From an uncultured Alphaproteobacteria bacterium (GTDB lineage: Bacteria; Electryoneota; RPQS01; DYHQ01), in NCBI GenBank assembly GCA_965372735.1, contig CBDVDL010000001.1, positions 1 to 28,063 of the forward strand: 28,063 bases of DNA. The letters run 5' to 3'. A model generated the notes under the pieces. That model was given only the letters and a program-made list of their open reading frames with translations, made no database searches and was not told the origin of the DNA. Of this stretch, positions 2,056 to 27,920 are shown piece by piece (position 1 is the first letter of the stretch; the number at the start of each line of letters is the position of its first letter). The position numbers and the translations under genes were made by a program.

Positions 2056-3542
2056 TGTTTCCTCCCTAATGATGACAGGTTGTTTTGCCAGATAGCTGAA
2101 AGAACACATCCAAACTCCCTTAACCGCGCGTCCATTATCTTATCAAGCTCGCGTTGGATGGTGGGGTCGAGGGGTTGGGATTCGTGTTTCTTTAATGTTT
2201 TTTCGACGAAATCGTGGGCGCGTTCGAGGGCGGTTTTAGCGCCGTGACGTTCGGAAGCTTCGTCAGTCATACGGTCAACGATTTTGCTGGGGTAATAGCC
2301 TTCCTTTTTGTACCACTTCAGCGTATGCGGATGGTCAAGAAGATTGCCTTTCTGAATAAGCACTTCCATCAGTTCGGGAATGCTCGCTCCTTCACGAGGT
2401 TCGATACCGCGAGTCAATCGCAGCGCGGAGCCGCAGATATCGTGATCAATCGCGAGCTTTTCGAGCGACTGCGCGTTTTCGAAATTCATCATCCCCGCGC
2501 CGGAAATCATGTTCACTCCCGCGAGCGCCGCCATCACTGCTCCCATGCCGCTCTCGAAACCCGCCTGCGCGTCCACGACCTTCGCATCGGAAAGGCTCAT
2601 GTACGCATGTGTCGGCACGTTGAAATGTTTGCCGACTTGCGCGTACGCCGCGTCAATCATCATCGTCTCAATCGCGCCCATCGGCGTCGTGGCGGTGCGC
2701 ATATCGAAAAACGCCGGCGAACCGCCATAGATAATCGGCGCGCCGGGCGCGGCGAGCTGATGAATCACGATGCCGCTTAAATCCTCGGCGCAATGCTGCA
2801 CGACCGCTCCATGCAGCGACACCGGCGAGGTCGCGCCTGTCAACGGCATCGAAACCAACTCCGCCGGAATGCCCGCACGAGCGCAGTCGATTAAATCCTG
2901 ACACGTCAAATCGCTCCACATCAGCGGCGGTGACGGGCAACAATCGAATTGCGCCAGTGGTTTTTCACGCAGCGCTTTCTCGCTCCCACGCACGACAACC
3001 AGCATCCGGCGCATCACATCGAACGAACCGCGTATGAACGTACCGGTCACCACAGGTTTCGTGCCATTCGTCAGCGCGATATACAAGCGGATGCTGTCCG
3101 AAACTTCCGGAGGCACATCGCCCGGCACGACGCCCGTGGATTGCGCGGCGAAATTCGGCAGCGCATCAATCAGGCGCGCGAAACGAACGGCGTCTTCAAT
3201 GCGCGCACTTCGAAGTTTGCCGCTGTCGTAATCGTAAAATTTCAACGCCGCCGAACCGGGGTCGAAATGGCAACGATCCTCTCCTAAATCCGCTTGTAAT
3301 TTTCCTTCGCGGTCATAGAGCTGAATCGAAGAAGGAACGGTTTTCAAACATCTTTCGATGAGGGCTGAATTTATTTTAACTCTGCCCGCTTCCAGCTTCG
3401 CTCCGGCATCAAGGAGAAGCTGCTTTGCTTCAGCATTCTCGACCTTCACGCCCGAGCGTTCCAAAATTGTATAAGCGTCTTCGATAATCGCCTGTACCAA
3501 TTCCGGCGAAAGAAGTTTTATTTTAGGTCGAATAACGGACAT
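2052..3542 (-). CDS. Trimethylamine methyltransferase (MttB) superfamily protein, non-pyrrolysine
   Basis: GGAGG SD before ATG 3542; CCPSPPL, GATSPVSLHG, DMRTATTPMGAIE, SDAKVVDAQAGFESGM, GVNMISGAG motifs. No in-frame TAG; Ser codon at 2550-2552 aligns by eye with the Pyl position. Confidence 0.9.
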   Translation of the reverse strand: MSVIRPKIKLLSPELVQAIIEDAYTILERSGVKVENAEAKQLLLDAGAKLEAGRVKINSALIERCLKTVPSSIQLYDREGKLQADLGEDRCHFDPGSAALKFYDYDSGKLRSARIEDAVRFARLIDALPNFAAQSTGVVPGDVPPEVSDSIRLYIALTNGTKPVVTGTFIRGSFDVMRRMLVVVRGSEKALREKPLAQFDCCPSPPLMWSDLTCQDLIDCARAGIPAELVSMPLTGATSPVSLHGAVVQHCAEDLSGIVIHQLAAPGAPIIYGGSPAFFDMRTATTPMGAIETMMIDAAYAQVGKHFNVPTHAYMSLSDAKVVDAQAGFESGMGAVMAALAGVNMISGAGMMNFENAQSLEKLAIDHDICGSALRLTRGIEPREGASIPELMEVLIQKGNLLDHPHTLKWYKKEGYYPSKIVDRMTDEASERHGAKTALERAHDFVEKTLKKHESQPLDPTIQRELDKIMDARLREFGCVLSAIWQNNLSSLGRKQ

Positions 3543-3546
3543 GCGA

Positions 3547-4185
3547 TTACCTCCGAAAAGAGCAGTCTTGTTTTTCACAAAGATTACACCTTGAAGCTTG
3601 CGGTTCCCCCGGAGGAGATGCCGTCAGCTTCACGGCGAACGAAATAGATTTTAAGGGATTCATCAGAAAAGTCGGACTCAATTTAACACCGACCCTTTCG
3701 GCGAACAGATGAGAAAAAATGATTTTCTGACCTGATTTCAATGCCCAGTTTCCGTAGCCCGGACTGAAACGCGGCCATGCAGCGAGTCCCTCTTCCGCCG
3801 CTTTCTCGCAGATACGCGCATCGACGGCATTCGCGAGACTTTCTACGGTTTCCGAACCGACCGCATCGAGCGCGGTCGCGAGCGCGAACTGTCCTTTGTC
3901 TGAAAGCTCGCGCACCTTCTCTTCTAAGCTCGAGCCGATGGTGCAAATACTGAGAACGATTGGACCGAGGTCGTTTTTTAACGCTGCCTCTTCAAAATCA
4001 CTATCGAAAATTCCATAGACGGCACGCGGCTTTGAAAGATTGTGCCCCATAAGCAGCGCTTCGTCCACCATGTCACGCAATCTTTCCGGAGCGTCTTCTT
4101 CCCGCCCTCCAAGCAGGCGGTAGATTTCTCCGATGCGAGGCACCACCGAAAGATCATCCATATAAAAAATTGATGCTGCTGTCAT
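3547..4185 (-). CDS. B12-dependent methionine synthase reactivation-domain-like protein
   Basis: LDAVGSETVE, RFSPGYGNW, LMNPLKSISF motifs; C-terminal CNLCEKQDC; start overlaps the upstream stop (ATGA, 4185-4182). Confidence 0.8.
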   Translation of the reverse strand: MTAASIFYMDDLSVVPRIGEIYRLLGGREEDAPERLRDMVDEALLMGHNLSKPRAVYGIFDSDFEEAALKNDLGPIVLSICTIGSSLEEKVRELSDKGQFALATALDAVGSETVESLANAVDARICEKAAEEGLAAWPRFSPGYGNWALKSGQKIIFSHLFAERVGVKLSPTFLMNPLKSISFAVKLTASPPGEPQASRCNLCEKQDCSFRR

Positions 4186-5051
4186 TTCCATCGCTTCCGA
4201 ATTAATGCAATCGTCTCTGGATTCGTTCCACAGCAACCGCCAATGATTTCCACACCGAGTTCTCGGATTTTTATGATGTTCGCTACATATATCTCGTTAT
4301 CTTCAGGGTAAACTGTGCCCTGTGGTGTGACCTGAGGCATACCGGCATTCGCCTGAATGATGACAGGAATAGAAACAGCTTCGCGGGCTTCTTTTGCGAC
4401 GTCTATCATGTCCGCGCTGCCCAGCGAACAGTTCGCACCAACCGCTGCCGCACCAGCATTCGCCATCGCCTTTATCGCATTCTCGACCTTGTCACCGAAA
4501 AGCGAGAAATATCCTTTCTTGCGTTTCTCGAATGTCATGCTGAGCATAAATGGCTTTTCGGATACGGAGCGAAACGCGCTGGCTACTAATAGAATTTCCT
4601 GAAGGTCGAAGAAGGTTTCCGCGATGAAGAAATCAACACCTTCCTCGTCCAAGATGCGCGCCTGAGATGCGAAAGCGTGTTCGATGTCATCAGGTTTGCC
4701 CGGCCCCACCGGTTCGAGCAGAAGCCCTGAAGGGCCGATTTCCCCTGCGACAAGCGCTCGCTTCGAAGCAGCTTCTTTCGCGAGTCGAACACCTTTTCTC
4801 GTCAACTCTTCCCAAGATTGTTTGATTTTATGCTCGCCAAAGCGCACCGGATTCGAGTTAAAGGTGTTCGTAGTGATGACATCCGAACCGGCTTCGACAT
4901 AAGCGGCATGCAATTCCCTGACGGCATCAGGATTCTCCGTATTCCAAATATCGGGAGGCTGCCCCGGCGCAAGTCCTTTGCGCTGCAACTCAGAACCGAT
5001 AGCGCCATCGAAAAGAAGGCCTCGGGATTTGATGCGCTCAATCAAATTCAT
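4182..5051 (-). CDS. Homocysteine S-methyltransferase domain protein
   Basis: LLFDGAIGS, AGSDVITTNTF, ETFFDL, GANCS and GGCCG Zn-binding motifs; ATG 5051 overlaps the upstream stop (ATGA). Confidence 0.9.
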   Translation of the reverse strand: MNLIERIKSRGLLFDGAIGSELQRKGLAPGQPPDIWNTENPDAVRELHAAYVEAGSDVITTNTFNSNPVRFGEHKIKQSWEELTRKGVRLAKEAASKRALVAGEIGPSGLLLEPVGPGKPDDIEHAFASQARILDEEGVDFFIAETFFDLQEILLVASAFRSVSEKPFMLSMTFEKRKKGYFSLFGDKVENAIKAMANAGAAAVGANCSLGSADMIDVAKEAREAVSIPVIIQANAGMPQVTPQGTVYPEDNEIYVANIIKIRELGVEIIGGCCGTNPETIALIRKRWK

Positions 5052-5701
5052 TGACGTGTTTCCACAAGTTCGCGCGCCATACGGACCGCTTCGATAGCAT
5101 TCTCGCCGTAGCCGTCCGCGCCGATGTCTTCCGCCCATTTGCGACTGACCGGCGCGCCGCCAACCATCACTTTCACACGGGCCCGAAGTCCTCTCTGCGC
5201 GAGCATTTCGATGACGGTTTTTTGACCCATCATCGTCGTCGTCAGCAGAGCCGAAAGGCAAATCAGGTTCGCGTTAAAATCTGCGGCTTCGCTGCAGAAT
5301 TTTTCCAGCGGAACATCCGCGCCTAAATCGCGCACTTCAAAACCGGACGCTTCCAACATCGCGGCGACGAGAGATTTGCCGATGTCATGGATGTCTCCCT
5401 GAATCGTCCCGATAACCACGCGCCCGAATGAAGAACTCCCGGATTGCCCCGCCGCCATTTCCGGTGTCAAAATCGCCATGATCGCTTTCATGGTTTCGGC
5501 GGACAGCATCAGCTCCGGCAGAAAAATATCGCCTTCCTCCCAGAGGTCTCCCAGACGCCGCATCGCGGGAATGCACGCTTGGTTGACAAGGTCGATGGCG
5601 GAAATACCATCAGAAAGTCCCTGCCGGACGCATTCCAAAGCGCGCTCCTTTTCGGCAGCCTGAACGGCTTCATTTAATTGTGTAAAAATGTCGTTTTTCA
5701 C
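5048..5701 (-). CDS. Corrinoid (B12-binding) protein, MttC/MtbC-like
   Basis: Cap domain (FLPELMLSAE), DIHDIG (DxHxxG), SALLTTT and VMVGGAP motifs; GTG start with GGAG SD. Confidence 0.92.
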   Translation of the reverse strand: MKNDIFTQLNEAVQAAEKERALECVRQGLSDGISAIDLVNQACIPAMRRLGDLWEEGDIFLPELMLSAETMKAIMAILTPEMAAGQSGSSSFGRVVIGTIQGDIHDIGKSLVAAMLEASGFEVRDLGADVPLEKFCSEAADFNANLICLSALLTTTMMGQKTVIEMLAQRGLRARVKVMVGGAPVSRKWAEDIGADGYGENAIEAVRMARELVETRQ

Positions 5702-7844: not shown

Positions 7845-8513
7845 TTATTCCCTGATAATCGCTTCTAACAGCCTCACCTGCCACTCCGGCCATTCGTGCA
7901 CGGAAACGTAGTCTGCGCTGCGGGGGATATACACCCATTCCGGTTTTGAATTTTTCGAAAAAACACGTAGTAGTTCTTTTGCGAAGATTTCAGCTTCAGC
8001 GGTTCTGCCCATCTCTTTCAACGCTCTCAGTTTTAAAATCTTCGCCAAGTCGTTGTACGGCGCGATTTCGAAGGCTTTTTCAAATTTATCCAGTGCTTTC
8101 GGCCATTTTCCTTCCGTCAGTTCCAACCAGCCTACAAACGTCAGCACATCATCGCCGTCAGGATCGAGAAGTTGCACTTCGTTAATTTCATGGCTTGCGG
8201 TTGCAGTATCTCCAGTTTGCAGAAGAAAGCGGGCATAATCCAAACGCAGTTCGACTATACCGGTGCGTCGTTTGAGCGCCGCTTCGAAATACGTCTTCGC
8301 GCCTTTGTTTTCGTCTGCATCTCCCAAAGCCAACGCCATTCCCCATAGCGCATCGGCTCTATCGCTTTGATACTCCAACACCTTCGCAAAATTTTGTTTC
8401 GCTTTTTTGTAATCTCCCGCGCGCAAATAAGCTCTGCCGAGAGCCTGATTCAGCTTAGAGGGTTCCTGAGACGCGAGCTTCGGAAACCCCTTTTCAAGCT
8501 CGTTGCAAGCCAT
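7845..8513 (-). CDS. TPR protein; probably the C-terminal part of the upstream TPR/peptidase gene
   Basis: Several TPR-like helical pairs; same frame as 8571..10544, separated only by TGA 8573-8571 and 19 sense codons. Confidence 0.7.
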   Translation of the reverse strand: MACNELEKGFPKLASQEPSKLNQALGRAYLRAGDYKKAKQNFAKVLEYQSDRADALWGMALALGDADENKGAKTYFEAALKRRTGIVELRLDYARFLLQTGDTATASHEINEVQLLDPDGDDVLTFVGWLELTEGKWPKALDKFEKAFEIAPYNDLAKILKLRALKEMGRTAEAEIFAKELLRVFSKNSKPEWVYIPRSADYVSVHEWPEWQVRLLEAIIRE

Positions 8514-8570
8514 CTCTTTATCCCCCGTTCGATGATAAGTCGCTTCCGCGTATTGAATGTACGCCTTCGC

Positions 8571-10532
8571 TCACGTCGGATGAAGTGTCTTCAGTGTCTC
8601 GGCATATTGAACAGCGATGTCATGGTGCCCAAGAATTGAATTGACGTGTGACAGAAGTTCTAAGACCGACAAATCCGTTGCACCATGCTTATAGGCTTTC
8701 TGCGCCATCGTTAGCGCATCTTCCGCCCGACCTTTTTCAAGGTAGCTCCCGCCCGCATTCACCAACCCAATCACATAGTAGAGTTCGTCGTTCTCAATCG
8801 ACAGAAAATGCTCGATTAAATCAACAAGCGCCGTGTCCAATTCGAAAAGACGCTCCCGGACAATTTCGCGAGTGTCGTAAGCGTTGCGCTGCGGAGATTC
8901 GTGCGCATTGGCAGCTTCAGCAAAGTACTCCCACACACTGGCGCCTTGATAGCGACTCATAAATGTCTTCGTTCCGGCGTTCTCGCACTCTTTCGCTTTT
9001 CGATACACCTCTTCAATCCGGTTTTTTTCGTCGGGCGTCAGGATGTAATGAACCTGATGGGTCAGCTCGTGCAGGACGGTGTTGTAGCGACCATAGATGG
9101 TGCGTTCGACATCCTCGATACCGGTCACGGTATTAAAACCGCCGCAGCCGCGCACATCATCCCACAAGCGCGAGTCGTACGAAATTCGCAAATCCTTCAG
9201 CGTTTCCAACTCGGGGCACTCGGAGAGTCGTTCGTAGAGAGGTTTGATGTAGTAAGTGCAGCCGCTTTCAACCAGCACCGGCACGAAAGCTTTCCACGGA
9301 GCAACAGACAACGCGACCTGTTTTTGATGACGCGGCGAAAGAGCTTTCCAGTTCATTACGAATTCGTCAATGCGGGGAACATCCGGCATCAAGCGAGCAT
9401 CAAACGTTTGCCAATCGGAATGCCTGTAGATACTCTCTCGCATCCGTTTGCCTTCCATCGCCTTTGCGTAACCATTGTGCGCGCGGCCGTACGCTGGACA
9501 GATTTTTAGAGCCGCTTTGAAGTATTGCCTCGCCTTTTCAAATTCCTCCTGCGCCCAGGCGATTGCTCCTAATATCGTCAGCGGTTCCACCCAATCAGGA
9601 GGCGCGTCTGCTATCTGCTGAAGCTTAGCTTTCGCCGCTGTGACATCTCCGGCACTTAGAAGATTTTTTGCTTCGTCAAGTTTCTTTTGTCCTTCACTGT
9701 CAGAGAAAATGTTAGGATATTCTTCTACGAGCTGCGTATAGTTAAAACGCGCAAAACCGTTGCCGAGGTAGTAATGTGCCATTTCATGATACGGATTGAC
9801 TTCGAGCGCCTTTTCCAAAACACGCGTCGCTTCCTGAACGCGTCCGAGTCGCAGGAGCGGCTGAACCATTGCGGAAAGCAAATTATCGCTGAACGTTCGC
9901 TCGTCTAAAATCGCAACAAGCGTATCCAGCGCAATTTGATTTTCATTCTGCTTGTACTTGACTTGAGACACCCCAATAACCGCCAGCGCTTTCCAAGACT
10001 CGCTCTGCGCTTCATGAAGAGCGCGCGTGTAGTACTCGTTGGAGCGATCAAAATCGAGCAGACGGTAGTACAAATTCGCGCGCGCCAATAGAGCCGGAAT
10101 ATTGTCTGAATCCTCAGCCAAAAGCTTTTCACTCAAACTATCGATTCCGGGTAAATCTTCCTTCGCCTGCAAAAGCTGAAACTCGAGCCAGCGCAAATTC
10201 TCTGATTTTGAATGCCGCCCAAGACCCTGCCAGATAATCTTTTCAGCAGCTTTAAAATTATACTTCTTCAAATAGATTTCCGCGTCTATGACATCGGCTT
10301 TGTCGGGATTTCCATCGCGCAATGCCTGCCCTAATAAAGCAACCTCATCGAAATATCCCAGTCGCAGAGCGATACTGGCACGCTCCACAAGAGACTTAGA
10401 CGCATCGTCCCACACGCCTTCAAGAGCTTCGTGAGTCGTCTGGATTTTTTGCTCCAGCGTCGGAGATGCGGCAACAATACCGGATACAATAAAAGTAAGA
10501 GATATAAGGATTGTCAAACATTGCTGTTTCAT
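8571..10532 (-). CDS. Exported TPR protein with HExxH zinc-metallopeptidase-like domain
   Basis: GAGG SD before ATG 10532; signal-peptide-like N-terminus; TPR repeats; TVLHELTH (HELTH 9071-9057) and downstream EYFAEA. Confidence 0.8.
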   Translation of the reverse strand: MKQQCLTILISLTFIVSGIVAASPTLEQKIQTTHEALEGVWDDASKSLVERASIALRLGYFDEVALLGQALRDGNPDKADVIDAEIYLKKYNFKAAEKIIWQGLGRHSKSENLRWLEFQLLQAKEDLPGIDSLSEKLLAEDSDNIPALLARANLYYRLLDFDRSNEYYTRALHEAQSESWKALAVIGVSQVKYKQNENQIALDTLVAILDERTFSDNLLSAMVQPLLRLGRVQEATRVLEKALEVNPYHEMAHYYLGNGFARFNYTQLVEEYPNIFSDSEGQKKLDEAKNLLSAGDVTAAKAKLQQIADAPPDWVEPLTILGAIAWAQEEFEKARQYFKAALKICPAYGRAHNGYAKAMEGKRMRESIYRHSDWQTFDARLMPDVPRIDEFVMNWKALSPRHQKQVALSVAPWKAFVPVLVESGCTYYIKPLYERLSECPELETLKDLRISYDSRLWDDVRGCGGFNTVTGIEDVERTIYGRYNTVLHELTHQVHYILTPDEKNRIEEVYRKAKECENAGTKTFMSRYQGASVWEYFAEAANAHESPQRNAYDTREIVRERLFELDTALVDLIEHFLSIENDELYYVIGLVNAGGSYLEKGRAEDALTMAQKAYKHGATDLSVLELLSHVNSILGHHDIAVQYAETLKTLHPT

Positions 10533-10570
10533 GGAATACCTCACCGGGGAAATTTTTTATCATAGCATCA

Positions 10571-11776
10571 TCAGGTGCGCGTACTCTTTTTCAAATCCTC
10601 CCAGCACATCACCTGAAAAGGAGATTCGCGGCGTAACTCTTCCGCTTCTTCTTTCGCGAATACGAAAACGACGGCGTCATCCGGCTCAAACAGATTCAAA
10701 TCAATATCGCCGAGATGCCGCCATTCTTTTTCTTCGCGCCAGTTGTTTTCGCCGTGGCCGCAACTTTGGAAAAAGGGTGCGTCCTGCTCCTGCAGGAAAC
10801 GGAATTGATAATCTTCGCCATAGATAACGCATCTTGCGCCGAGCGATTCGAGTTTGCTTCGATTGAGTGCGATGCCATACGGTTCGAAGGTCCATCGAAA
10901 AAGACCGGGCCGCCATTTCACGAGCTTCGCTAATTCCCACGGCAGACATTCTGTCAGCGACACCACACATTTATCTCCGCGAATGAGCTTGTTCGATGCC
11001 ATCAAACGCCGCTGTTTCAGGATTCGTTTCAGCGTGCGAAAACCGCTTCGAGGATAGCCACTTTCTTCTCTATCAAAAGCGGCATAGAAATCAGCCTTTG
11101 TTTCGCCCGGCCAAGGAGCAGTCGTTTTTCTCGTCCAATGCGTTAAAGCTTCCCACGGCAGTACATTGCCTCGCGGATTAGCAATTTCCAAGTTCGAGAA
11201 GGGTGAACGTCCCGTTTCTTTCTTGTAGGGAATTCTGTTCTCTTCATTCACTTTGCTGGAAACTTCGATAGCGGTTTCGAGGTTTCCGCCGGGACGAATG
11301 GAGACAGGATACAGTGCCTCGGCCAGCGCAACGATCCACGCATCGCGTTTTGGAAATTTTGAGAGCGACTTAAAAGAGTTTGGATAATCGTTTGTGAAAA
11401 CAAAGAGTGTTTTGTCCGCGTCGAGATGGAAATCTCGCGCGATTTCGGAAGCAAATTCAGCGGCATCATTCTGCGACACATCCGGGACGACGATGATGAG
11501 TTCGCTGTCGCATGCGGCAGCTTTCCATGTCACCAACTCCCACGTAAACATCCCGACGCTGGAAATAATAACGGCATTGCTTTCCACAAGTTCCTGCACG
11601 AGATGAAGCGTCTTTTGTATCCAATCAGCGCCGGCGTCGGGAAATTTCCCATGACGGGAATTCAGCACCGCTGCCGTGCGCTTATCGAGCAGACTAAGAT
11701 TTCCTATAATCGAAACAGTACCTTCATTTTGAATGGTAAAGGGAGCACAAATCCGGGATAATCCTGCCGATTCCAT
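10571..11776 (-). CDS. Uncharacterised fusion: degenerate DprA/SLOG-like N-terminus plus AbiGi/ART-like C-terminus
   Basis: N-terminal GNLSLLDKRTAAVLNSR and RDAWIVALAEALYPVS echo DprA; C-terminal LTHWTR, VVSLTE, EPYGIAL, VIYG, EEKEWR. ORF clearly coding, function inferred. Confidence 0.6.
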   Translation of the reverse strand: MESAGLSRICAPFTIQNEGTVSIIGNLSLLDKRTAAVLNSRHGKFPDAGADWIQKTLHLVQELVESNAVIISSVGMFTWELVTWKAAACDSELIIVVPDVSQNDAAEFASEIARDFHLDADKTLFVFTNDYPNSFKSLSKFPKRDAWIVALAEALYPVSIRPGGNLETAIEVSSKVNEENRIPYKKETGRSPFSNLEIANPRGNVLPWEALTHWTRKTTAPWPGETKADFYAAFDREESGYPRSGFRTLKRILKQRRLMASNKLIRGDKCVVSLTECLPWELAKLVKWRPGLFRWTFEPYGIALNRSKLESLGARCVIYGEDYQFRFLQEQDAPFFQSCGHGENNWREEKEWRHLGDIDLNLFEPDDAVVFVFAKEEAEELRRESPFQVMCWEDLKKSTRT

Positions 11777-11975: not shown

Positions 11976-12003
11976 AAAAAAAAAGCGACCACGCGGTCGC
12001 TTT
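11976..12003 (-). terminator. Intrinsic terminator after cheW-HDOD
   Basis: AAAGCGACC/GGTCGCTTT stem with a 9-T tract on the - strand, just past the HDOD stop. Confidence 0.85.
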
Positions 12004-12030
12004 CTCAAATAACGTAAATCAATATTTTTG

Positions 12031-13978: not shown

Positions 13979-14794
13979 ATGAAACTTAGCTTTAAAAAAT
14001 ACCACGGACTTGGAAACGATTTTATCGTCCTGGACGGCCGCGCTGAAACGCCAGCGCTCAGGCCGGAACACGTGCGCGCGCTTTGCGACCGGCATCGCGG
14101 TATCGGCGCGGATGGCGTTCTAAGTCTTCAAACAGGCCAACAAGCGCTCTATCGGATGGTTCTGCACAATGCTGACGGCAGCCCGGCGGAAGTTTCCGGC
14201 AATGGTTTGCGCTGTTTCGCGCTTTTCCTGCGAGACATCGGCGAGGACATTTCGGGTTCAATCCGTATCGAAACAGGGCCGGAAATTTCCGAAGTCGAAA
14301 TCGTGCAGGACAATCACGTGCGAGTGCAAATGCCTCGCCCGAATTTTCACGTCGAACCTCCAATGAAACCCAAAACGCAGCGATTGGATGTGGCGGGACA
14401 ATCTTTCGAAGTGCTGTTGCTTTCCGTGGGGAATCCGCATTGTGTGATTTTCGGGCCGTTGCGCGATGAAATCTTCGTCCGAACTTATGGCCCCTTAATC
14501 GAAAAAGATAATATTTTTCCCGCGGGCACGAATGTGGAATTCGCTCATATCATCAGCCGGAATTCCTGCCAGCTTACGGTTTGGGAGCGGGGAGCAGGTT
14601 TGACGCTCGCCTGCGGTTCCGGCGCGGCGGCAACAGTCTGCGCGGGCGCAATCTTGGGCAAGCTGCAAACAGGCGCTCCGGTCACTGTCATTCAAAACGG
14701 TGGGGATTTAGACGTCACCGTGAGTCCTGACTTTTCACAAGTCACTCTCGAAGGCCCGGCGCAGTTTGTTTTCAGTGGAGAAATCATCATTTAA
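13979..14794 (+). CDS. dapF: Diaminopimelate epimerase (first catalytic Cys replaced by Ser)
   Basis: KYHGLGNDF, GIGADG, SVGNPHCV, FPAGTNVEF, WERGAGLTLACGSG motifs; residue 73 is Ser (EVSGNG). Confidence 0.88.
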   Translation: MKLSFKKYHGLGNDFIVLDGRAETPALRPEHVRALCDRHRGIGADGVLSLQTGQQALYRMVLHNADGSPAEVSGNGLRCFALFLRDIGEDISGSIRIETGPEISEVEIVQDNHVRVQMPRPNFHVEPPMKPKTQRLDVAGQSFEVLLLSVGNPHCVIFGPLRDEIFVRTYGPLIEKDNIFPAGTNVEFAHIISRNSCQLTVWERGAGLTLACGSGAAATVCAGAILGKLQTGAPVTVIQNGGDLDVTVSPDFSQVTLEGPAQFVFSGEIII

Positions 14795-14802
14795 TCTATG
14801 AT

Positions 14803-17172
14803 ATGCATACAATGAATAAGCTAATCTATTTCGCTAAAATTATCCTCGCCCTTGCGATTCCCATCGCGCTTTTCGGGCAAACGAAACCGTCCACTGTTCC
14901 TCGCAGTTACCTGATGCCGGGAGATTCCCTTTACTATGACCTGTCTTTGAAAAAAGGCGACGTGCTCGAATGGAATCTCTGGCTCGCTCCCACGCTCGAA
15001 GCATCCGAAAAAACCGTGCTCAGTTTTGTCTCGGATGTGGATGGGCAACTTTGGGAGCGGTCGTTTGGGAGCAAAGCTCTGGATTTGCGGGATAAAATCC
15101 GCATCAAAAGCTACGCGCGATACCGCATGACGCTCAAAACGACCGGTCAGCGGGGACGGATGGCAGAACTCAGTGTATGGACGAAGCTGAAAGCATCCCA
15201 TCAGGCTCCCTTTCCCTCGCCGGGCGTACAGCGTTTCGCCGAGATTTTTTCCTCCGGTGATCAGTTTTCCGTCGAATACGAATTTCTCCTGCCGAAGTCG
15301 ATTGGTTTTCAGGAACTCCTTGGATTAGAGCTGTCGCAAGATTTAGTTCATCTGTGGGCGATTACGCCTTTGGGCGATTCACTTCCGGCCACCGCATCTG
15401 TCAAACGCTGGTTCGGCGAAGCAGGCATTCTTTCACTGCGGGAACGAACTCCTTACGGAGGACGGATTACGCTGCGACTGGAGCTCGATGTGGCGGACAA
15501 CGGCGAGTCCATTCTTTTCCTTGCACCCGGTACGCCGCCTCCCGATTGGCTTCCTTCTAAAGCCCGCATGCTCATCACCCGCAAGCACGACCCTTGGAAA
15601 GGCATCATTGTTCCCCCGGTGACCGCTATGGCGGAAACATTGGCCGCGCATCCGGTCGAGTTGCCTCGCGCACCTTATGCCGAGCAAAGCCTTCGAGCGC
15701 GCGGTCTGGATTCTGTCATCGTCGCTGAACTGACAGAGGTTTACACCGAACGGGACAGTCTGTCCGCTGTTCGCCATGCGCGTCGCTCCATGAGTGAAGG
15801 CTACGACACGGAATTCCTTACCGGCAAAAAGGCATTTCTCCCGCCGGATTTGCACGTTGTTCTGACCATACCGCTCACAGGACACCACCCCGAAAAACGC
15901 ATCTCCGGCCGCACTCGTTTGGAATGGTTTGTCGAAGGCGATAAGGAACATACTCGCCATGCTAAACTCTACGAGTGGCGCTACGATGAAGCCCATATTG
16001 CTCGCGCGGACGTGCCGGATGAATTCTTTTGGGATAACCGAATTCTGCCGCTGTACGCGAATCTCAATAGACATTCTGCCGCGAGCCCCAAATCGCCTGC
16101 CACGATTACGTCGCAACCGCTTCCCGACCCTCGTCCATCGACATTTGAGCAATATGGAAAAGAATACATCGATGACAGCCGAAGCGTGCTTGCGCTTTAT
16201 CTGGAAAACAGTTCGAAGGACACGCTCTACCTTGTTTACCATCAGGCGCGCCTGCCGAAACGCACGGTCTTCTCGGCACTGTCACGCTGGCCGATAGGTG
16301 CGCGCTTGGCGGCGGTTATTTTGGGGATTTTCGGTCTTGCTGGTATCGCGGCGATTGTGGAATTGCGCCGCCGCGAACGAAAAAGAAGAAAGCGCTCGGA
16401 AGAATTCGAAGTGGAATTGGAAAAAGCGCGTCAGGTGCAGTTGAAACTGCTGCCGGATGGCCCGATGGAAGCGCAGGGCTTGCAAGTGTACGGCCTGCAC
16501 CAAAGCATGCAGTCGGTCGGCGGCGATTATTACGATTTCTTTGCTCTCGAAGATGGGCGCGTGCTGCTCTGTGTGGCGGATGTCGCGGGGCACGGTTTAG
16601 CAGCGGCGTTGCTGATGTCGAATGTGCAGGCGACGCTTCGCTTAATCGCTCAACCCGGACGGCAACTGACCGAGATTGTTTCTCTTCTGAATCACGAAAT
16701 ATGTCAGCGCACCTCGCCGGAGCGCTTTGTGACATTTCTTATTGCCGAAATATCCGCCGACCGTTCGCTCATTACCATCTGCAACGCCGGGCATAATCCG
16801 GGCTATATCGTCCGCAAATCAGGCAATATCGTGGAGCTGGACGCGGGAGGAGTGATGCTGGGATTCATGGATGTCTTCCCGTTCATTCAGATGGAACATG
16901 GTCTGGACTCCGGCGACCTGATTGTGCTCTACACCGATGGAATTCCCGAAGCCGAAGTCGGTCATGAGGATATGTTCGGCTATGAACGCTTGAAATACTA
17001 CCTGCAGAACCATCGCGCCGAAAACCTGATGAACATCGCACAGGGATTGCTGCGCCGCGTCACGTCTGAGGATGCTCATACGATTGAAGACGACATGGCG
17101 ATTGTCCTCGCGCGCATCGGAACCGCAACCCGACGCGAACCTACCTCGAAAAAGAAAATCAAAACAGCATGA
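14803..17172 (+). CDS. Membrane PP2C/SpoIIE-family phosphatase with large extracytoplasmic N-terminal region
   Basis: Signal-like N-terminus, one TM (IGARLAAVILGIFGLAGIAAIV), VGGDYYD, ADVAGHG, YTDG and DDMAIV motifs. Confidence 0.88.
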   Translation: MHTMNKLIYFAKIILALAIPIALFGQTKPSTVPRSYLMPGDSLYYDLSLKKGDVLEWNLWLAPTLEASEKTVLSFVSDVDGQLWERSFGSKALDLRDKIRIKSYARYRMTLKTTGQRGRMAELSVWTKLKASHQAPFPSPGVQRFAEIFSSGDQFSVEYEFLLPKSIGFQELLGLELSQDLVHLWAITPLGDSLPATASVKRWFGEAGILSLRERTPYGGRITLRLELDVADNGESILFLAPGTPPPDWLPSKARMLITRKHDPWKGIIVPPVTAMAETLAAHPVELPRAPYAEQSLRARGLDSVIVAELTEVYTERDSLSAVRHARRSMSEGYDTEFLTGKKAFLPPDLHVVLTIPLTGHHPEKRISGRTRLEWFVEGDKEHTRHAKLYEWRYDEAHIARADVPDEFFWDNRILPLYANLNRHSAASPKSPATITSQPLPDPRPSTFEQYGKEYIDDSRSVLALYLENSSKDTLYLVYHQARLPKRTVFSALSRWPIGARLAAVILGIFGLAGIAAIVELRRRERKRRKRSEEFEVELEKARQVQLKLLPDGPMEAQGLQVYGLHQSMQSVGGDYYDFFALEDGRVLLCVADVAGHGLAAALLMSNVQATLRLIAQPGRQLTEIVSLLNHEICQRTSPERFVTFLIAEISADRSLITICNAGHNPGYIVRKSGNIVELDAGGVMLGFMDVFPFIQMEHGLDSGDLIVLYTDGIPEAEVGHEDMFGYERLKYYLQNHRAENLMNIAQGLLRRVTSEDAHTIEDDMAIVLARIGTATRREPTSKKKIKTA

Positions 17173-20060
17173 CACCACCACCGAAAATAATGAGCCTAAT
17201 TGAACGCTTCGAAAACAATCGCGAAGCGTATCATTCATCCGGATATAATGAAACGCAACTGCGGCAGGAATTCCTCGATCCATTCTTCAAGGCGCTCGGC
17301 TGGGACGTGGACAATGAACAGGGTTACTCGGAAGCCTACAAAGACGTCATCCACGAGGATCAGATTAAAGTCGGCGGAGGAACGAAAGCTCCCGACTACT
17401 GTTTCCGCATCGGCGGCACGCGCAAATTTTTCGTGGAAGCGAAAAAACCCGCGGTGAATTTAAAAGAAGACGCCAGCCCGGCGTTTCAGTTGCGCCGCTA
17501 TGCGTGGTCGGCTAAATTGCCGCTGTCGATTCTCACCGATTTCGAGGAATTCGCCGTCTATGACTGCCGCGTCCGGCCCGATAAAACCGACAAAGCCTCC
17601 GCTCACCGCGTCATGTATTTCCGGTATGATGATTATCTTGAGAAATGGGATGACATCGTCGGTATTTTCTCCCGCGAGGAAGTGCTCAAAGGCTCCTTCG
17701 ACAAATACGCCGAATCCATGCGCCGCAAAAAAGGCACGGCGGAAGTGGATGCGGCGTTTCTCAGTGAAATCGAAACGTGGCGCAATGAACTCGCGCGCAA
17801 TTTGGCATTGCGCAATAAAGACCTTAGCCAGCGCGAACTTAACTTCGCCGTCTCGCGCACGATTGATAGAATCATTTTCCTGCGCGTGTGCGAAGACCGC
17901 GGCATTGAGCCATACGGTCAGCTTCAAGAGCTCTTAGATAAACAGAAAATATACAAGCAGCTCTTCCAAATTTTTCATCGTGCCGACGAACGTTACAACT
18001 CCGGCCTGTTTTATTTTAAGAAGGAAAAGGAGCGCCCGGGGCCGCCGGATGAACTGACGCCATCGCTCAAGCTCGACGACAAGAAGCTCAAAGACATCAT
18101 CAGGAGCCTCTATTATCCCGACAGCCCCTACGAGTTTTCAGTTCTGCCTGCGGACATTTTGGGACAGGTTTACGAGCAGTTCCTCGGCAAAGTCATTCGC
18201 CTGACAAAAGGCCATCAAGCCAAAGTCGAGGACAAGCCCGAAGTCAAGAAAGCGGGCGGGGTGTATTACACGCCGACCTATATCGTGGACTATATCGTCA
18301 AGCACACTGTCGGGAAGCTGCTCGAAGATAAAACACCCAAGCAAGCGGCGAAACTTCGGATACTCGACCCGGCGTGCGGTTCAGGTTCGTTCCTCATCGG
18401 CGCTTACCAATATCTGCTCGACTGGCACCGCGACTGGTATGTGTCCCATCTCAACAAGGGGCTTCAGCCCCTTGAAACATCAGCAACTGACAAGGGAGTA
18501 GGCAAGGGGCTGAAGCCCCTTGTTTATCAGGTTTCTGGCGGTGAGTGGCGGCTGACGACGGCGGAACGCAAGCGCATTTTGTTGAACAACATCTACGGCG
18601 TGGACATTGACCCGCAGGCCGTAGAAGTGACGAAGTTGTCGCTCCTGCTGAAAGTTCTCGAAGGCGAATCGCGCGACACAATTGAATCGCAGCTTCGCAT
18701 GTTCCGCGAGCGCGCGTTGCCCGATTTGAGTTCGAACATCAAATGCGGCAATACCCTCATCGGCCCGGATTTCTACGAGCACGAGCAGATGACGCTGTTG
18801 GACGACGAGGAACGCTACCGCATCAACGCCTTCGACTGGCAAACCGAGTTCGCCCCCATCATGAAAGCTGGCGGCTTTGATGCGGTGATAGGGAACCCGC
18901 CTTATTTGTATTCGGCTGGGCAGGACTACTTGGACTATTTCAATGAACACTATAGCTTACGACAATATCAAACGGACTACTATGTCTATTTCATTGAATG
19001 TGCGCTAAAGCTTTGTAGGAAAGAAGGCAAAGTTTCATTCATCGTGTCCGACTCATGGACAAATTCAGAGTACTTCTCTGTTATGAGAAATCATCTATTA
19101 ACAAGCCACAAAATAGATGTACTGGCAGTTTTCGGATATCCCGTATTTAAAGCAGCGGCACTTGAGAATAGTATTTTCGTAATCAGCAATCAAGCTTCAC
19201 CTACTCCGATCCCAGTCGAAAAATTTTCGAATCCAAACGAGTACAAAATAGTAAACAGAGTCAATCCGTCTGATGCCGTTGAGCGCGGCTTAATTGATTA
19301 TCGCACGTCATCAAGCATTAGGGCAGTTATTAGCAAGATTGAAAATGGTTCAATTCCGCTCGATCGTATTGTGAATTTGAATCGGGGGATTCATGCTTAT
19401 CGGACAGACGGATACGGCATATCAAAATTCGGCGGTGGGCCGCAGACGAAAAGAGACAAGGATGAAATGTCTTATCATGCGGATTCGCAATTAGATAAGA
19501 CATATTTGCCCGAACTTAAAGGCCGAGATATTCAGAGATACTCGCACAAGAAAAGCGTACGCTTTCTATCGTATGGTCCATGGTTGGCAGAGCCGCGCAA
19601 GCCGGATTTCTTTTTCCAGCCGAAAATCGTTCTTAGAAAGATTCTCGGCAGAAAGTTGCATGGAACATTCTTAGACAAACAGTATGCTTTAGATCAATCG
19701 CTTTACATAGCTATTTCACGCTTAGGTGATAATAGTCTGCTACTTCACATACTCGGAATTTTGCTCTCAACTCTCGGCGCTTGGTATTTGAGAAATAAGT
19801 TTGCAATCTATGACACCCTTTATCCGTGGTATACCAAAAAGCAATTAAGTGCATTCCCAATGAAGGAAAAAGATAATCGCTTGATTAGCATTGTAGAGCG
19901 GATGTTGGAATTGAATCGCGAGCTTCCGAAGGCTAAGACGCCGGATGAAAAGACGCGGCTCGAACGGCAAATCACCGCCACCGACCGGCAGATTGATAAG
20001 CTCGTGTATGAATTGTATGGTCTGACCGAGGATGAGATTAAGATTATGGAAGGAGTGTGA
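17169..20060 (+). CDS. Type IIG restriction-modification enzyme (nuclease, N6-adenine MTase, TRD)
   Basis: PDY...FFVEAKKP nuclease motif, GVYYTP, ILDPACGSGSFL (motif I), GNPPY (NPPY 18894-18905), C-terminal IDKLVYELYGLT helix; ATGA overlap with the phosphatase stop. Confidence 0.92.
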   Translation: MTPPPKIMSLIERFENNREAYHSSGYNETQLRQEFLDPFFKALGWDVDNEQGYSEAYKDVIHEDQIKVGGGTKAPDYCFRIGGTRKFFVEAKKPAVNLKEDASPAFQLRRYAWSAKLPLSILTDFEEFAVYDCRVRPDKTDKASAHRVMYFRYDDYLEKWDDIVGIFSREEVLKGSFDKYAESMRRKKGTAEVDAAFLSEIETWRNELARNLALRNKDLSQRELNFAVSRTIDRIIFLRVCEDRGIEPYGQLQELLDKQKIYKQLFQIFHRADERYNSGLFYFKKEKERPGPPDELTPSLKLDDKKLKDIIRSLYYPDSPYEFSVLPADILGQVYEQFLGKVIRLTKGHQAKVEDKPEVKKAGGVYYTPTYIVDYIVKHTVGKLLEDKTPKQAAKLRILDPACGSGSFLIGAYQYLLDWHRDWYVSHLNKGLQPLETSATDKGVGKGLKPLVYQVSGGEWRLTTAERKRILLNNIYGVDIDPQAVEVTKLSLLLKVLEGESRDTIESQLRMFRERALPDLSSNIKCGNTLIGPDFYEHEQMTLLDDEERYRINAFDWQTEFAPIMKAGGFDAVIGNPPYLYSAGQDYLDYFNEHYSLRQYQTDYYVYFIECALKLCRKEGKVSFIVSDSWTNSEYFSVMRNHLLTSHKIDVLAVFGYPVFKAAALENSIFVISNQASPTPIPVEKFSNPNEYKIVNRVNPSDAVERGLIDYRTSSSIRAVISKIENGSIPLDRIVNLNRGIHAYRTDGYGISKFGGGPQTKRDKDEMSYHADSQLDKTYLPELKGRDIQRYSHKKSVRFLSYGPWLAEPRKPDFFFQPKIVLRKILGRKLHGTFLDKQYALDQSLYIAISRLGDNSLLLHILGILLSTLGAWYLRNKFAIYDTLYPWYTKKQLSAFPMKEKDNRLISIVERMLELNRELPKAKTPDEKTRLERQITATDRQIDKLVYELYGLTEDEIKIMEGV
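18455..18522. repeat. Two in-frame palindromic repeats inside the RM gene
   Basis: CAAGGGGCT-TC-AGCCCCTTG (18455-18474) and AGGCAAGGGGCT-GA-AGCCCCTTG (18500-18522), read as KGLQPL and KGLKPL. Confidence 0.8.
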
Positions 20061-26864: not shown

Positions 26865-27920
26865 ATGAACACTCACATTCTAAGCACAGACACGCAGGCA
26901 ACGCTTTTGCTCTGCGGCCAATTCGGAAACGACACGACGACCATCCGCGCGTTGACGCTTTCCGAATTCAACAAATTCGAACAATGGCTCGCTGATGAAG
27001 ACTTAAGTCTATCCGATTTAATCGAGACAGATTCAGCGCAAATAATCGAAAAACTCCGGAACAGCGGCTTTGACCCGGAACGATTCGGCAGCTTGCTCAG
27101 TCGCGGAAGTGCGCTGGCGATTGCCGTCGAACAGTGGACGCAGACAGGTTTGTGGATACTCGGCCGCAACGACGAAATTTATCCGCCGTGTTTGAAAGAA
27201 CGGCTACAGAAAAAAGCGCCTGTCGTTCTTTACGGCGCGGGAAATCAATCGTTTTTATCACGCGGAGGACTCGCCGTCGTCGGTTCGAGAGACGCTGATG
27301 AAGAAGCGCTCTCTTTCGCGCGTACAGTCGGGGAAGTCTGCGCGCAGCAAGACATCCAGATTATTTCCGGTGGAGCGCGCGGAGTGGACATCGCCGCTAT
27401 GTCAGGCGCACTCGAACAAGGCGGCTCGGCCATCGGAATACTGAGCGGGAATCTTGCTCAGGAAATCGTTTCGGAGAAGAGTCGAATGTGGATTTCTGAT
27501 GACCGGCTCGTACTGCTCTCTCCCCATCCTCCACGCGCCGCCTTCAATGTTTGGAACGCGATGGAACGGAACAAACTTATTTACGCGATGGCAGATTATG
27601 CGCTTGTGGTCAGCGCGGAATTGGATAAGGGAGGCACATGGCAAGGCGCTTTGGAGAATGTGAAACACGGCTGGACGCCGCTGTTTGTCCGCGACGATGA
27701 ATACGCGCCGAAAGGAAACCGGGGACTCATCAAGCGCGGCGGCATCGCTATCGAACCGAGCGCGATTCATCCTGACGTAGCACTTCTGGACAAACTCAAA
27801 GAGCTCGCAGTGGCATGGAATACGACTCGAACCTCGAAACTCGAAAACAAGCAGCAATCGATTCTGTGGGACAAACCAGAGCCAAATAAGAAACCTAAAC
27901 GAAAAAAGAAATCCACCTAA
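26865..27920 (+). CDS. dprA: DprA/Smf (SLOG) family protein
   Basis: LAVVGSR, ISGGARGVD, AMERNKLIYA, KGGTWQGA motifs; starts 9 nt after the helicase stop. Confidence 0.9.
   Translation: MNTHILSTDTQATLLLCGQFGNDTTTIRALTLSEFNKFEQWLADEDLSLSDLIETDSAQIIEKLRNSGFDPERFGSLLSRGSALAIAVEQWTQTGLWILGRNDEIYPPCLKERLQKKAPVVLYGAGNQSFLSRGGLAVVGSRDADEEALSFARTVGEVCAQQDIQIISGGARGVDIAAMSGALEQGGSAIGILSGNLAQEIVSEKSRMWISDDRLVLLSPHPPRAAFNVWNAMERNKLIYAMADYALVVSAELDKGGTWQGALENVKHGWTPLFVRDDEYAPKGNRGLIKRGGIAIEPSAIHPDVALLDKLKELAVAWNTTRTSKLENKQQSILWDKPEPNKKPKRKKKST

Follow-up and report, generated by a model that had tools for sequence, protein, structure and literature searches.

The window analysed here, a stretch of 28,063 nt (contig CBDVDL010000001.1 of assembly GCA_965372735.1), is recorded as DNA of an uncultured Alphaproteobacteria bacterium and is placed by GTDB in the phylum Electryoneota. 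A complete coding sequence is located on its minus strand at 10571..11776. According to the list of open reading frames (ORFs) and the translation, it encodes a protein of 401 amino acids, P0001, followed by a TGA stop codon. The other ORFs overlapping these positions on either strand were at most 111 aa long, and ORF 10571-11776 is a real gene. Its product joins an N-terminal domain of the DprA clade of the SLOG superfamily to a C-terminal ADP-ribosyltransferase (ART) domain. Among the ARTs, P0001 and its relatives form a distinct family of the AbiGi-like branch that carries a DprA-clade domain as fusion partner. All features of the gene given below lie on the minus strand.

P0001 belongs to a large family in which it is conserved along its entire length. 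A word-indexed search returned 196 clusters at 90% identity, almost all of them 360-440 aa long and matching over 85-99% of the query. An exhaustive HMMER scan returned 1575 clusters at 50% identity with E ≤1e-3, 479 of them below 1e-30. The clusters carried no precomputed Pfam domain and had 'hypothetical protein' as their sole name. When the single P0001 sequence and the family profiles were compared with Pfam, NCBIfam, PADLOC and the PDB sequences, nothing significant was found beyond a weak DprA match, and the comparison of P0001 with PADLOC gave 0 families at E values up to 10. The combination of a DprA domain with an ART domain was not described in the literature searched, the 2015 paper that defined SLOG lying outside that search. 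Among sequencing runs, the P0001 sequence was found only in DNA runs, from marine sediment.

Residue conservation was counted in an alignment of 220 family members. D145, H213, E351 and R353 were invariant (220/220), and E298, P299 and Y319 were each present in 219 members. At least 95% of the members also kept S40, W52, S73, R144, G164, T215, G301, G313, V317, Q337, W346 and E349; for T215, W346 and E349 the figure was at least 97% each. The full-length AlphaFold model built from the family alignment had a mean predicted local distance difference test (pLDDT) score of 89.6 and a predicted template modelling score (pTM) of 0.88. The two domains are separated by a variable linker (residues 173-207; 11156..11260), which was modelled with a pLDDT of ~64-65 and is 18-70 residues long across the family.

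The N-terminal domain (residues ~20-172; 11261..11719) was assigned to the DprA-clade (SLOG) Rossmann domains by Foldseek, VIA-align and hhalign, together with a weak match to Pfam DprA (PF02481). This match covered residues 23-169 of P0001 with 14.3 bits (E = 0.023), under the gathering threshold of 29.6 bits. Relatives had higher scores against the same profile, and one of them, P0158, exceeded the threshold with 42.6 bits. The top ranks in Foldseek were held by the DprA proteins of H. pylori and S. pneumoniae and by ShosA, with E values from 6e-5 (H. pylori) to 3e-4. In VIA-align, ShosA scored highest (Z 13.7), followed by DprA from three species (Z 10.4-12.6); among other SLOG proteins, the molybdenum-cofactor carriers reached Z 8.7-9.9, LOG 7-8 and the SLOG domain of ThsA 5.5. 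The profile of the domain was also aligned by hhalign with three DprA proteins of the window's own phylum, with a probability of 78% and an E value of 1.8e-5.

The DprA domain is identified by two motifs, G-S/T/A-R and F/L/Y-x-x-R-N/D, that form a pocket binding the bases of single-stranded DNA (ssDNA) (Wang et al., PMC3950713). In P0001, N39-S40-R41 (11654..11662) aligned with the G-x-R of DprA and is the candidate counterpart of motif 1, with N in place of G; of the 220 members, 218 kept S40 and 188 kept R41. Motif 2 is represented by F141-P-K-R144-D145 (11342..11356), which fits the published pattern and aligned with the R-N-R stretch of DprA. R144 was kept in 209 of the 220 members and D145 in all of them, and many members had W at the first position of the motif. 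A third stretch, the loop I-R161-P-G-G164 of the Rossmann pocket (11285..11299), aligned with the S-G loop of DprA (R161 in 200/220, G164 in 212/220). Because S40, R144 and D145 are almost invariant at the positions of the DprA motifs, the pocket is probably retained. Judged by alignment and model, the N-terminal domain belongs to the DprA clade, from whose other members it has diverged while apparently keeping the base-binding pocket residues.

DprA/Smf is the recombination mediator of natural transformation and loads RecA. P0001 shares with it the extended Rossmann fold and, in the pocket, the F-x-x-R-D motif and the S-R part of motif 1. In contrast to DprA/Smf (PF02481), P0001 has no visible SAM domain and no C-terminal winged-helix domain, and the ART domain stands in the C-terminal position. 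Canonical DprA (~260 bits) was found in 77 of the 79 genomes of the window's own phylum. The source genome (G000) has its canonical copy, scoring 259.7 bits, on another contig (C172, 617-1243), and the fusion protein is therefore not the DprA of the cell. Three DprA-type domains were observed in the source genome: canonical DprA, the fusion protein and a paralogue within the window (26865-27920, plus strand; 127.8 bits) that adjoins a gene for a RecQ-phosphoribosyltransferase (PRTase) protein. In G046, a relative of the same class but another family, the DprA paralogue and the fusion gene share a contig and lie 6-7 kb apart.

ShosA (PDB 8zva), which gave the best structural match to the N-terminal domain, is a DprA-like protein that acts as the antitoxin of the defence system ShosTA. 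It is an ssDNA binder with a stimulating role in recombination and repair (PMC11961720). It is a separate protein with a SAM domain and is paired with a PRTase toxin, whereas the DprA-like domain of P0001 is covalently joined to an ART. ShosTA is a toxin-antitoxin pair, and the P0001 gene lies outside any toxin-antitoxin operon. Type I Thoeris ThsA (SIR2-SLOG) resembles P0001 in that one chain joins a domain of the SLOG superfamily to a catalytic domain using nicotinamide adenine dinucleotide (NAD+), catalysis being predicted in the case of P0001. However, the SLOG domain of ThsA belongs to another clade (Z only 5.5 to the N-terminal domain of P0001) and binds cyclic ADP-ribose (ADPR). Moreover, ThsA belongs to a mobile defence system, depends on ThsB and has SIR2 as its effector, while the effector of P0001 is an ART.

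The C-terminal domain (residues ~208-392; 10601..11155) was recognised as an AbiGi-like ART fold from the domain model, Foldseek, VIA-align, ESM Atlas and hhalign. Residues 201-401 modelled alone gave a pLDDT of 89.5. The sole significant match of this model among solved structures in Foldseek was Thermus DarT (7omx, probability 0.98). VIA-align, which is independent of Foldseek and was run against 48,161 chains, placed four DarT1/DarT2 structures at the top (Z 7.3-8.2, 134-141 residues aligned) and Tpt1 fifth (Z 7.0, root-mean-square deviation 3.0 over 100 residues). ARTs made up the top 5 matches and most of the next 45, including Scabin, pertussis toxin, LT and poly(ADP-ribose) polymerases, among others. 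In ESM Atlas the nearest named clusters were AbiGi (template modelling score, TM, 0.72 and 0.69), DUF4427 (0.77) and DUF2971 (0.58), and a language-model search likewise pointed to AbiGi. AbiGi is counted among the ART families in a survey, which places it near DUF2971 and DarT; the canonical ART motifs listed there, on successive core strands, are RxD/HxT (motif I), STS/Yxx (motif II) and Ex[EQD] (motif III) (PMC12522546).

Counterparts of all three motifs were located in P0001. Motif I is H213-W-T215 (HxT; 11132..11140), on the first strand of the domain (210-215), with H in 220/220 and T in 217/220 members. Motif III is E349-K-E351, followed by W-R353 (10718..10732), at the start of strand 351-355; E349 was kept in 214/220 members, and E351 and R353 in all 220. 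The candidate for motif II is S273-L-T275 (10952..10960), on strand 271-275. Position 273 was Ser in 142, Ala in 50, Gly in 17 and Cys in 6 members, and position 275 was Thr in 168 and Ser in 49, so that the pattern is [S/A/G]x[T/S]; the candidates for the motif II residue are S273/T275, Y300 and Y319. Between motifs II and III lies a conserved core specific to the family (10820..10885), which the translation places from E298-P-Y-G-I302 (10871-10885) through V317-I-Y319 (10820-10828). Within it, G301 was present in 214/220 and Y300 in 202/220 members, and Y-G-I and P-V-x-Y are common to AbiGi. Model and motifs thus indicate that the C-terminal domain has an ART fold with its active-site residues apparently intact, and catalysis is predicted.

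AbiGi, known since the 1990s, belongs to the lactococcal AbiG abortive-infection system. To compare P0001 with AbiGi and DarT, genuine proteins of both kinds were gathered from 401 Desulfobacterota genomes. The C-terminal domain was aligned by hhalign with genuine AbiGi at probabilities of 95.0-97.9% (E 4e-8 to 4e-13) over 156-173 columns. The alignment paired L-T-H-W-T of P0001 with L-x-H-F-T of AbiGi, V-S-L-T with C-F-x-D-I-P, Y-G-I with Y-G-I, P-V-x-Y with P-V-x-Y and E-x-E-W-R with E-R-E-W-R. On this sequence comparison, the C-terminal domain is judged homologous to AbiGi. Matching to the Pfam AbiGi profile was poor: P0001 had no match to PF10899 (threshold 22.4 bits) at E values up to 10, only weak matches were obtained for 6 of 40 family members (best E 0.0093), and no PF10899 match was found in the source genome or in Desulfacinum. 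AbiGi is a single-domain protein of ~250 aa that works with AbiGii, whereas in P0001 the corresponding domain is joined to a DprA-like one and a partner gene is lacking; the two-gene AbiGi/AbiGii arrangement was not found, since no neighbour family occurred in more than 12 of 78 loci. The invariant E-P-Y-G and Q337 features of the P0001 family also set it apart from AbiGi.

DarT ADP-ribosylates ssDNA; in DarT1, motif II is represented by a Ser, alongside a His and the catalytic Glu (PMC11543638). This substrate fits the DprA-like partner domain of P0001. P0001 gave no match to Pfam DarT (PF14487), and hhalign against an alignment of 19 DarT sequences reached a probability of only ~0.1% in both global and local modes. 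Because the profile comparison was negative, the link to DarT stays structural. DarT, of ~215 aa, stands alone as a toxin, and its gene precedes that of DarG or NADAR, whereas the P0001 gene has no linked antitoxin gene. With the Pfam thresholds missed and the partner genes of AbiG and DarTG missing, P0001 is not filed under DprA, AbiGi or DarT. A further ART to be compared is Tpt1/KptA, which differs from P0001 in its winged-helix substrate-binding lobe and its Arg-His-Arg-Arg catalytic tetrad. Its ART lobe matched the C-terminal domain at Z 7.0, below the four DarT structures. Like the P0001 family it is chromosomal, and it is a non-toxin ART acting on nucleic acid.

A preliminary description of the gene, made from its letters and translation, had noted a degenerate DprA-type Rossmann pattern in the N-terminal ~200 aa, an ART fold of AbiGi/DUF2971-like type in the C-terminal half and a series of motifs (H...S-x-T...YGI...V-x-Y...ExEWR). 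These assignments held. The motifs were all present in the translation and belonged to the most conserved positions of the family. The modelling and Foldseek search of each half that it had proposed led from the N-terminal half to DprA/ShosA and from the C-terminal half to DarT. The DprA-type pattern agreed with the weak Pfam match, with P0158 above the cut-off and with the likeness of the model to ShosA and DprA. The ART fold agreed with the likeness of the model to DarT, Tpt1 and ART toxins, and the AbiGi/DUF2971-like assignment with the hhalign probabilities of 95-98% and the AbiGi and DUF2971 clusters of ESM Atlas.

The distribution of the fusion gene was examined in 79 GTDB species of the window's own phylum. 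It was present in 50 of them, always with one hit per genome. By family, the gene was found in 4/5 genomes of f1, 1/1 of f3, 16/16 of f4, 9/9 of f5, 16/16 of f6, 1/1 of f8 and 2/2 of f9, and the scores of the homologues dropped with taxonomic distance. In a sample of Zixibacteria it was present in 126 of 151 genomes (83%); second matches were rare and were halves of one split gene or fragments at contig ends. Further carriers bore the labels LCP-89, Tariuqbacter/Hatepunaea, Calditrichota, Latescibacterota, Planctomycetota and Syntrophobacteraceae in a species-genome scan that ran on one peptide pattern and therefore under-sampled the family. One carrier is cultured: Desulfacinum infernum DSM 9756 has a homologue of ~30% identity with a longer inter-domain linker (L093, 8001-9134; NZ_FQVB01000010.1). 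N-terminal extensions of 'long' deltaproteobacterial versions had no Pfam hit and were discarded, the 979-aa ORF of Desulfacinum at least being an artefact of long open frames in GC-rich DNA.

In the maximum-likelihood gene tree, f1, f5 and f6 formed clades with full support, and f4 was also a clade save for one nested metagenome-assembled genome (MAG) labelled Calditrichaeota. The deeper branches mixed phyla and may reflect ancient transfers or deep ancestry, both being compatible with the tree. The tblastn search of 50,697 phage and 72,556 plasmid records gave no match. The fusion gene is a stably inherited, single-copy core gene of Zixibacteria and relatives. AbiGi and DarT were distributed differently: they were patchy among the 401 Desulfobacterota genomes, in 17 (4%) and 31 (8%) respectively, DarT with DarG adjoining, while the P0001 family was near-universal in its lineages. 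Several MAGs with close homologues carried the record labels Alphaproteobacteria, Puniceispirillum or Ignavibacteria (L039, L040, L042 and several 'Ignavibacteria' loci). Of the MAGs recorded as Ignavibacteria, one (L069 = G081) fell in the sample of the phylum Zixibacteria, and the record labels look unreliable.

The clustering of neighbouring ORFs covered 21 loci in the phylum of the window and 78 in GTDB species. Neighbouring genes encoded glycosyltransferases, a lysylphosphatidylglycerol-synthase-like (LPG-synthase-like) membrane protein, a sodium symporter, YchF, SpoIID, ATP-binding cassette (ABC) exporters, glycine dehydrogenase, urocanase and histidine ammonia-lyase. Within two positions of the fusion gene there were 149 non-redundant genes, and none of the PADLOC or Pfam families represented among them recurred beyond three or four times. 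A conserved partner gene was sought and rejected as well: synteny held only within families, and the largest neighbour cluster covered 12 of the 78 loci.

In the window itself, a terminator-like hairpin with a T-run (11979..12006, minus strand) follows the upstream HDOD gene. It was identified by reading the sequence and by a pattern scan and is a consensus match only. A spacer of ~200 nt separates it from the fusion gene, which, given the position of the hairpin after the HDOD gene, probably starts its own transcript. Downstream, the fusion gene ends 26-40 nt before a TPR gene that occupies this place only in the closest relatives. This TPR gene (window 7845-10544, minus strand) has an in-frame TGA at 8571-8573, which splits it into ORFs of 657 aa and 222 aa. 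A relative of 86% identity has Arg at this position and a continuous TPR protein of 894 aa; the TGA could have arisen from CGA by a nonsense change, or could reflect recoding or an error of sequencing. An H-E-L-T-H (HExxH-like) string, in which Pfam recognises no peptidase, occurs in the 657-aa ORF.

The close relative L001/L038 (JAUXGA010000014.1) was compared with window 13979-20060. The block of CheW, fusion gene, TPR and GNAT was syntenic, the restriction-modification genes of the relative differed from those of the window in position and number, and the relative had no HDOD gene. Type IIG-like genes were located at 2716-5574 and 13024-15096 of L001. It seems that the core is stable and that the restriction-modification cassettes around it are gained and lost.

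As the best explanation we tentatively favour, at somewhat below an even chance, a NAD+-dependent ART that is directed to ssDNA by its DprA-like domain and has an endogenous chromosomal role; catalysis, substrate and role are all predictions. The DprA-like domain would dock the protein on ssDNA, and the ART domain, held to it by a flexible linker of 18-70 residues, would use NAD+ to ADP-ribosylate a base or other group on the ssDNA, or an ssDNA-bound protein. The protein would take part in the cell's own handling of ssDNA, be it in replication, repair, recombination or the uptake of DNA. Rather than a mobile abortive-infection module, it would be a relative of toxin and defence ARTs that has become domesticated. 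An ssDNA-directed ART is the simplest reading because each half has ssDNA-handling proteins as its closest characterised relatives. The endogenous role is suggested by single-copy vertical inheritance, by the housekeeping surroundings on the chromosome and by the lack of a linked antitoxin.

Candidates for a reversing enzyme were sought. No DarG macrodomain or NADAR antitoxin was found adjacent to the fusion gene, and the fusion loci had no conserved neighbour. NADAR and ARH were not found in the source genome, which is 88% complete. Its one macrodomain gene lies on another contig than the fusion gene (G000 contig C67, 5001-5333; locus L160) and has an ORF of ~200 aa. Macrodomains were present in 63 of the 79 genomes of the window's own phylum, including 17 of the 24 in f2, which has no fusion gene, and their co-occurrence with the fusion gene is uninformative because they are too widespread. 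Orthologues of the L160 macrodomain with similar scores (~105-135 bits) were seen in families that have the fusion gene; the macrodomains of f2 fell into clearly different score classes, and f7 had no macrodomain. There are hints that the L160 macrodomain is a candidate eraser, from very few independent events.

Several observations weigh against an ssDNA-directed, endogenous ART. One would expect toxicity from an ART that modifies DNA when no reversing enzyme is linked to it, and only the unlinked macrodomain is present; macrodomains occur also in families that lack the fusion gene. The similarity to DarT is one of fold only, with a TM of just ~0.44 in Foldseek, and the like order of the His motif, the Ser/Tyr position and the catalytic Glu was matched by motif order only. 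A recent review gives AbiGi without a functional assignment (PMC13064643). In the N-terminal domain, motif 1 has N in place of the G of DprA. The N-terminal domain of the window's protein is also acidic (isoelectric point 4.8; family median 7.8, with a wide spread), which is unusual for a DNA-binding domain; a small-nucleotide ligand would fit equally well. Finally, the gene was absent from f2 (0/24) and f7 (0/4), and since whole families do without it, it is not essential.

The first alternative is a single-gene anti-phage system acting by abortive infection, in which the DprA/SLOG domain would sense phage ssDNA or a nucleotide signal and free the ART to poison DNA or NAD+ metabolism. The closest named relatives of both halves (AbiGi, DarT and ShosA) belong to defence or toxin-antitoxin systems. 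SLOG-effector fusions are known, as in ThsA, whose SLOG domain matches the N-terminal domain at Z 5.5, and restriction-modification genes lie a few kb away both in the window and in a close relative. Defence is nevertheless unlikely in view of the distribution of the gene. It is near-universal and single-copy in whole families and present in 83% of the Zixibacteria sampled, it is monophyletic at the family level in the gene tree, and it had no match in phage or plasmid collections or among the PADLOC families. True DarT and AbiGi, unlike the P0001 family, are patchy (4-8% of genomes). The neighbours were housekeeping genes, and no defence family recurred among them. The preliminary description had proposed a single-gene sensor-effector and had suggested a search of the neighbourhoods of homologues for enrichment in defence islands. 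No such enrichment was found. Both of its domain calls stand, and the defence reading does not fit the housekeeping contexts and vertical inheritance of the homologues.

The second alternative moves the ligand from DNA to a small molecule. Here the SLOG pocket would take a nucleotide derived from NAD+ or ADPR, and the ART would be an NADase or would ADP-ribosylate proteins or small molecules. SLOG clades span ssDNA binders to nucleotide sensors and processors (PMC9503650), LOG and the molybdenum-cofactor carriers match the N-terminal domain at Z 7-10, and the acidic N-terminal domain of the window's protein is in line with such a ligand. Many of the ART families in the VIA-align list target proteins or hydrolyse NAD+. 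However, the N-terminal domain is clearly nearest to DprA/ShosA (Z 10-13.7, as against 5-10 for other SLOG proteins), the F-x-x-R-D motif of DprA and the S-R of motif 1 are kept, and the C-terminal domain is nearest to nucleic-acid ARTs (DarT and Tpt1), not to protein-targeting toxins. We regard this alternative as rather improbable.

An RNA-directed enzyme like Tpt1/KptA, which would use NAD+ for 2'-phosphate removal or for the capping or ADP-ribosylation of RNA ends while the Rossmann domain binds RNA, is very unlikely. Tpt1 was the fifth-best solved match (Z 7.0) and, as Tpt1/KptA, is a chromosomal non-defence ART like the P0001 family, but the four DarT structures scored higher, with 134-141 residues aligned as against 100, no counterpart of the Arg-His-Arg-Arg tetrad was identified, though no search was aimed at it, and DprA-type pockets are documented for DNA (PMC3950713). 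Least likely of all is a non-catalytic protein whose ART-like domain would serve for binding or as a scaffold and which would work only as a DprA-like recombination mediator: Pfam labels AbiGi 'antitoxin' and the review cited above assigns it no function, but H213 and E351 are invariant and E349 is kept in 214/220 even in divergent members, a pattern typical of active sites, and canonical DprA is already present in 77 of the 79 genomes.

The ssDNA-directed ART can be carried further, to a proposal that we consider doubtful but worth stating. Zixibacteria and allied lineages may ADP-ribosylate their own ssDNA constitutively, by means of a DarT-like enzyme tethered to a DprA-type ssDNA clamp. 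The modification would have a physiological use, as a mark or as a brake, during replication, repair or the uptake of DNA, and would be reversed by an unlinked macrodomain. The allied lineages meant are LCP-89, the Calditrichota-like genomes and those labelled Latescibacterota, Planctomycetota and Syntrophobacteraceae. To our knowledge, DNA ADP-ribosylation in bacteria has so far been known from toxin-antitoxin and defence modules (DarTG, DarT-NADAR). If the proposal is true, it would be the first housekeeping pathway of DNA ADP-ribosylation in bacteria and would provide a biochemical function for the AbiGi superfamily.

By structure and profile, the P0001 family bridges AbiGi to the DarT-type ART fold with the catalytic motifs apparently intact, and its fusion partner suggests ssDNA as the target. 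Surprisingly, an ART of toxin type behaves as a core gene of its lineages, and this core, single-copy, vertical pattern argues for a domesticated endogenous role. With Desulfacinum infernum DSM 9756 a carrier is available in culture, so that the prediction can be tested. Its confirmation would show a toxin-type enzyme becoming a stable cellular function and would annotate more than 1000 'hypothetical' clusters.

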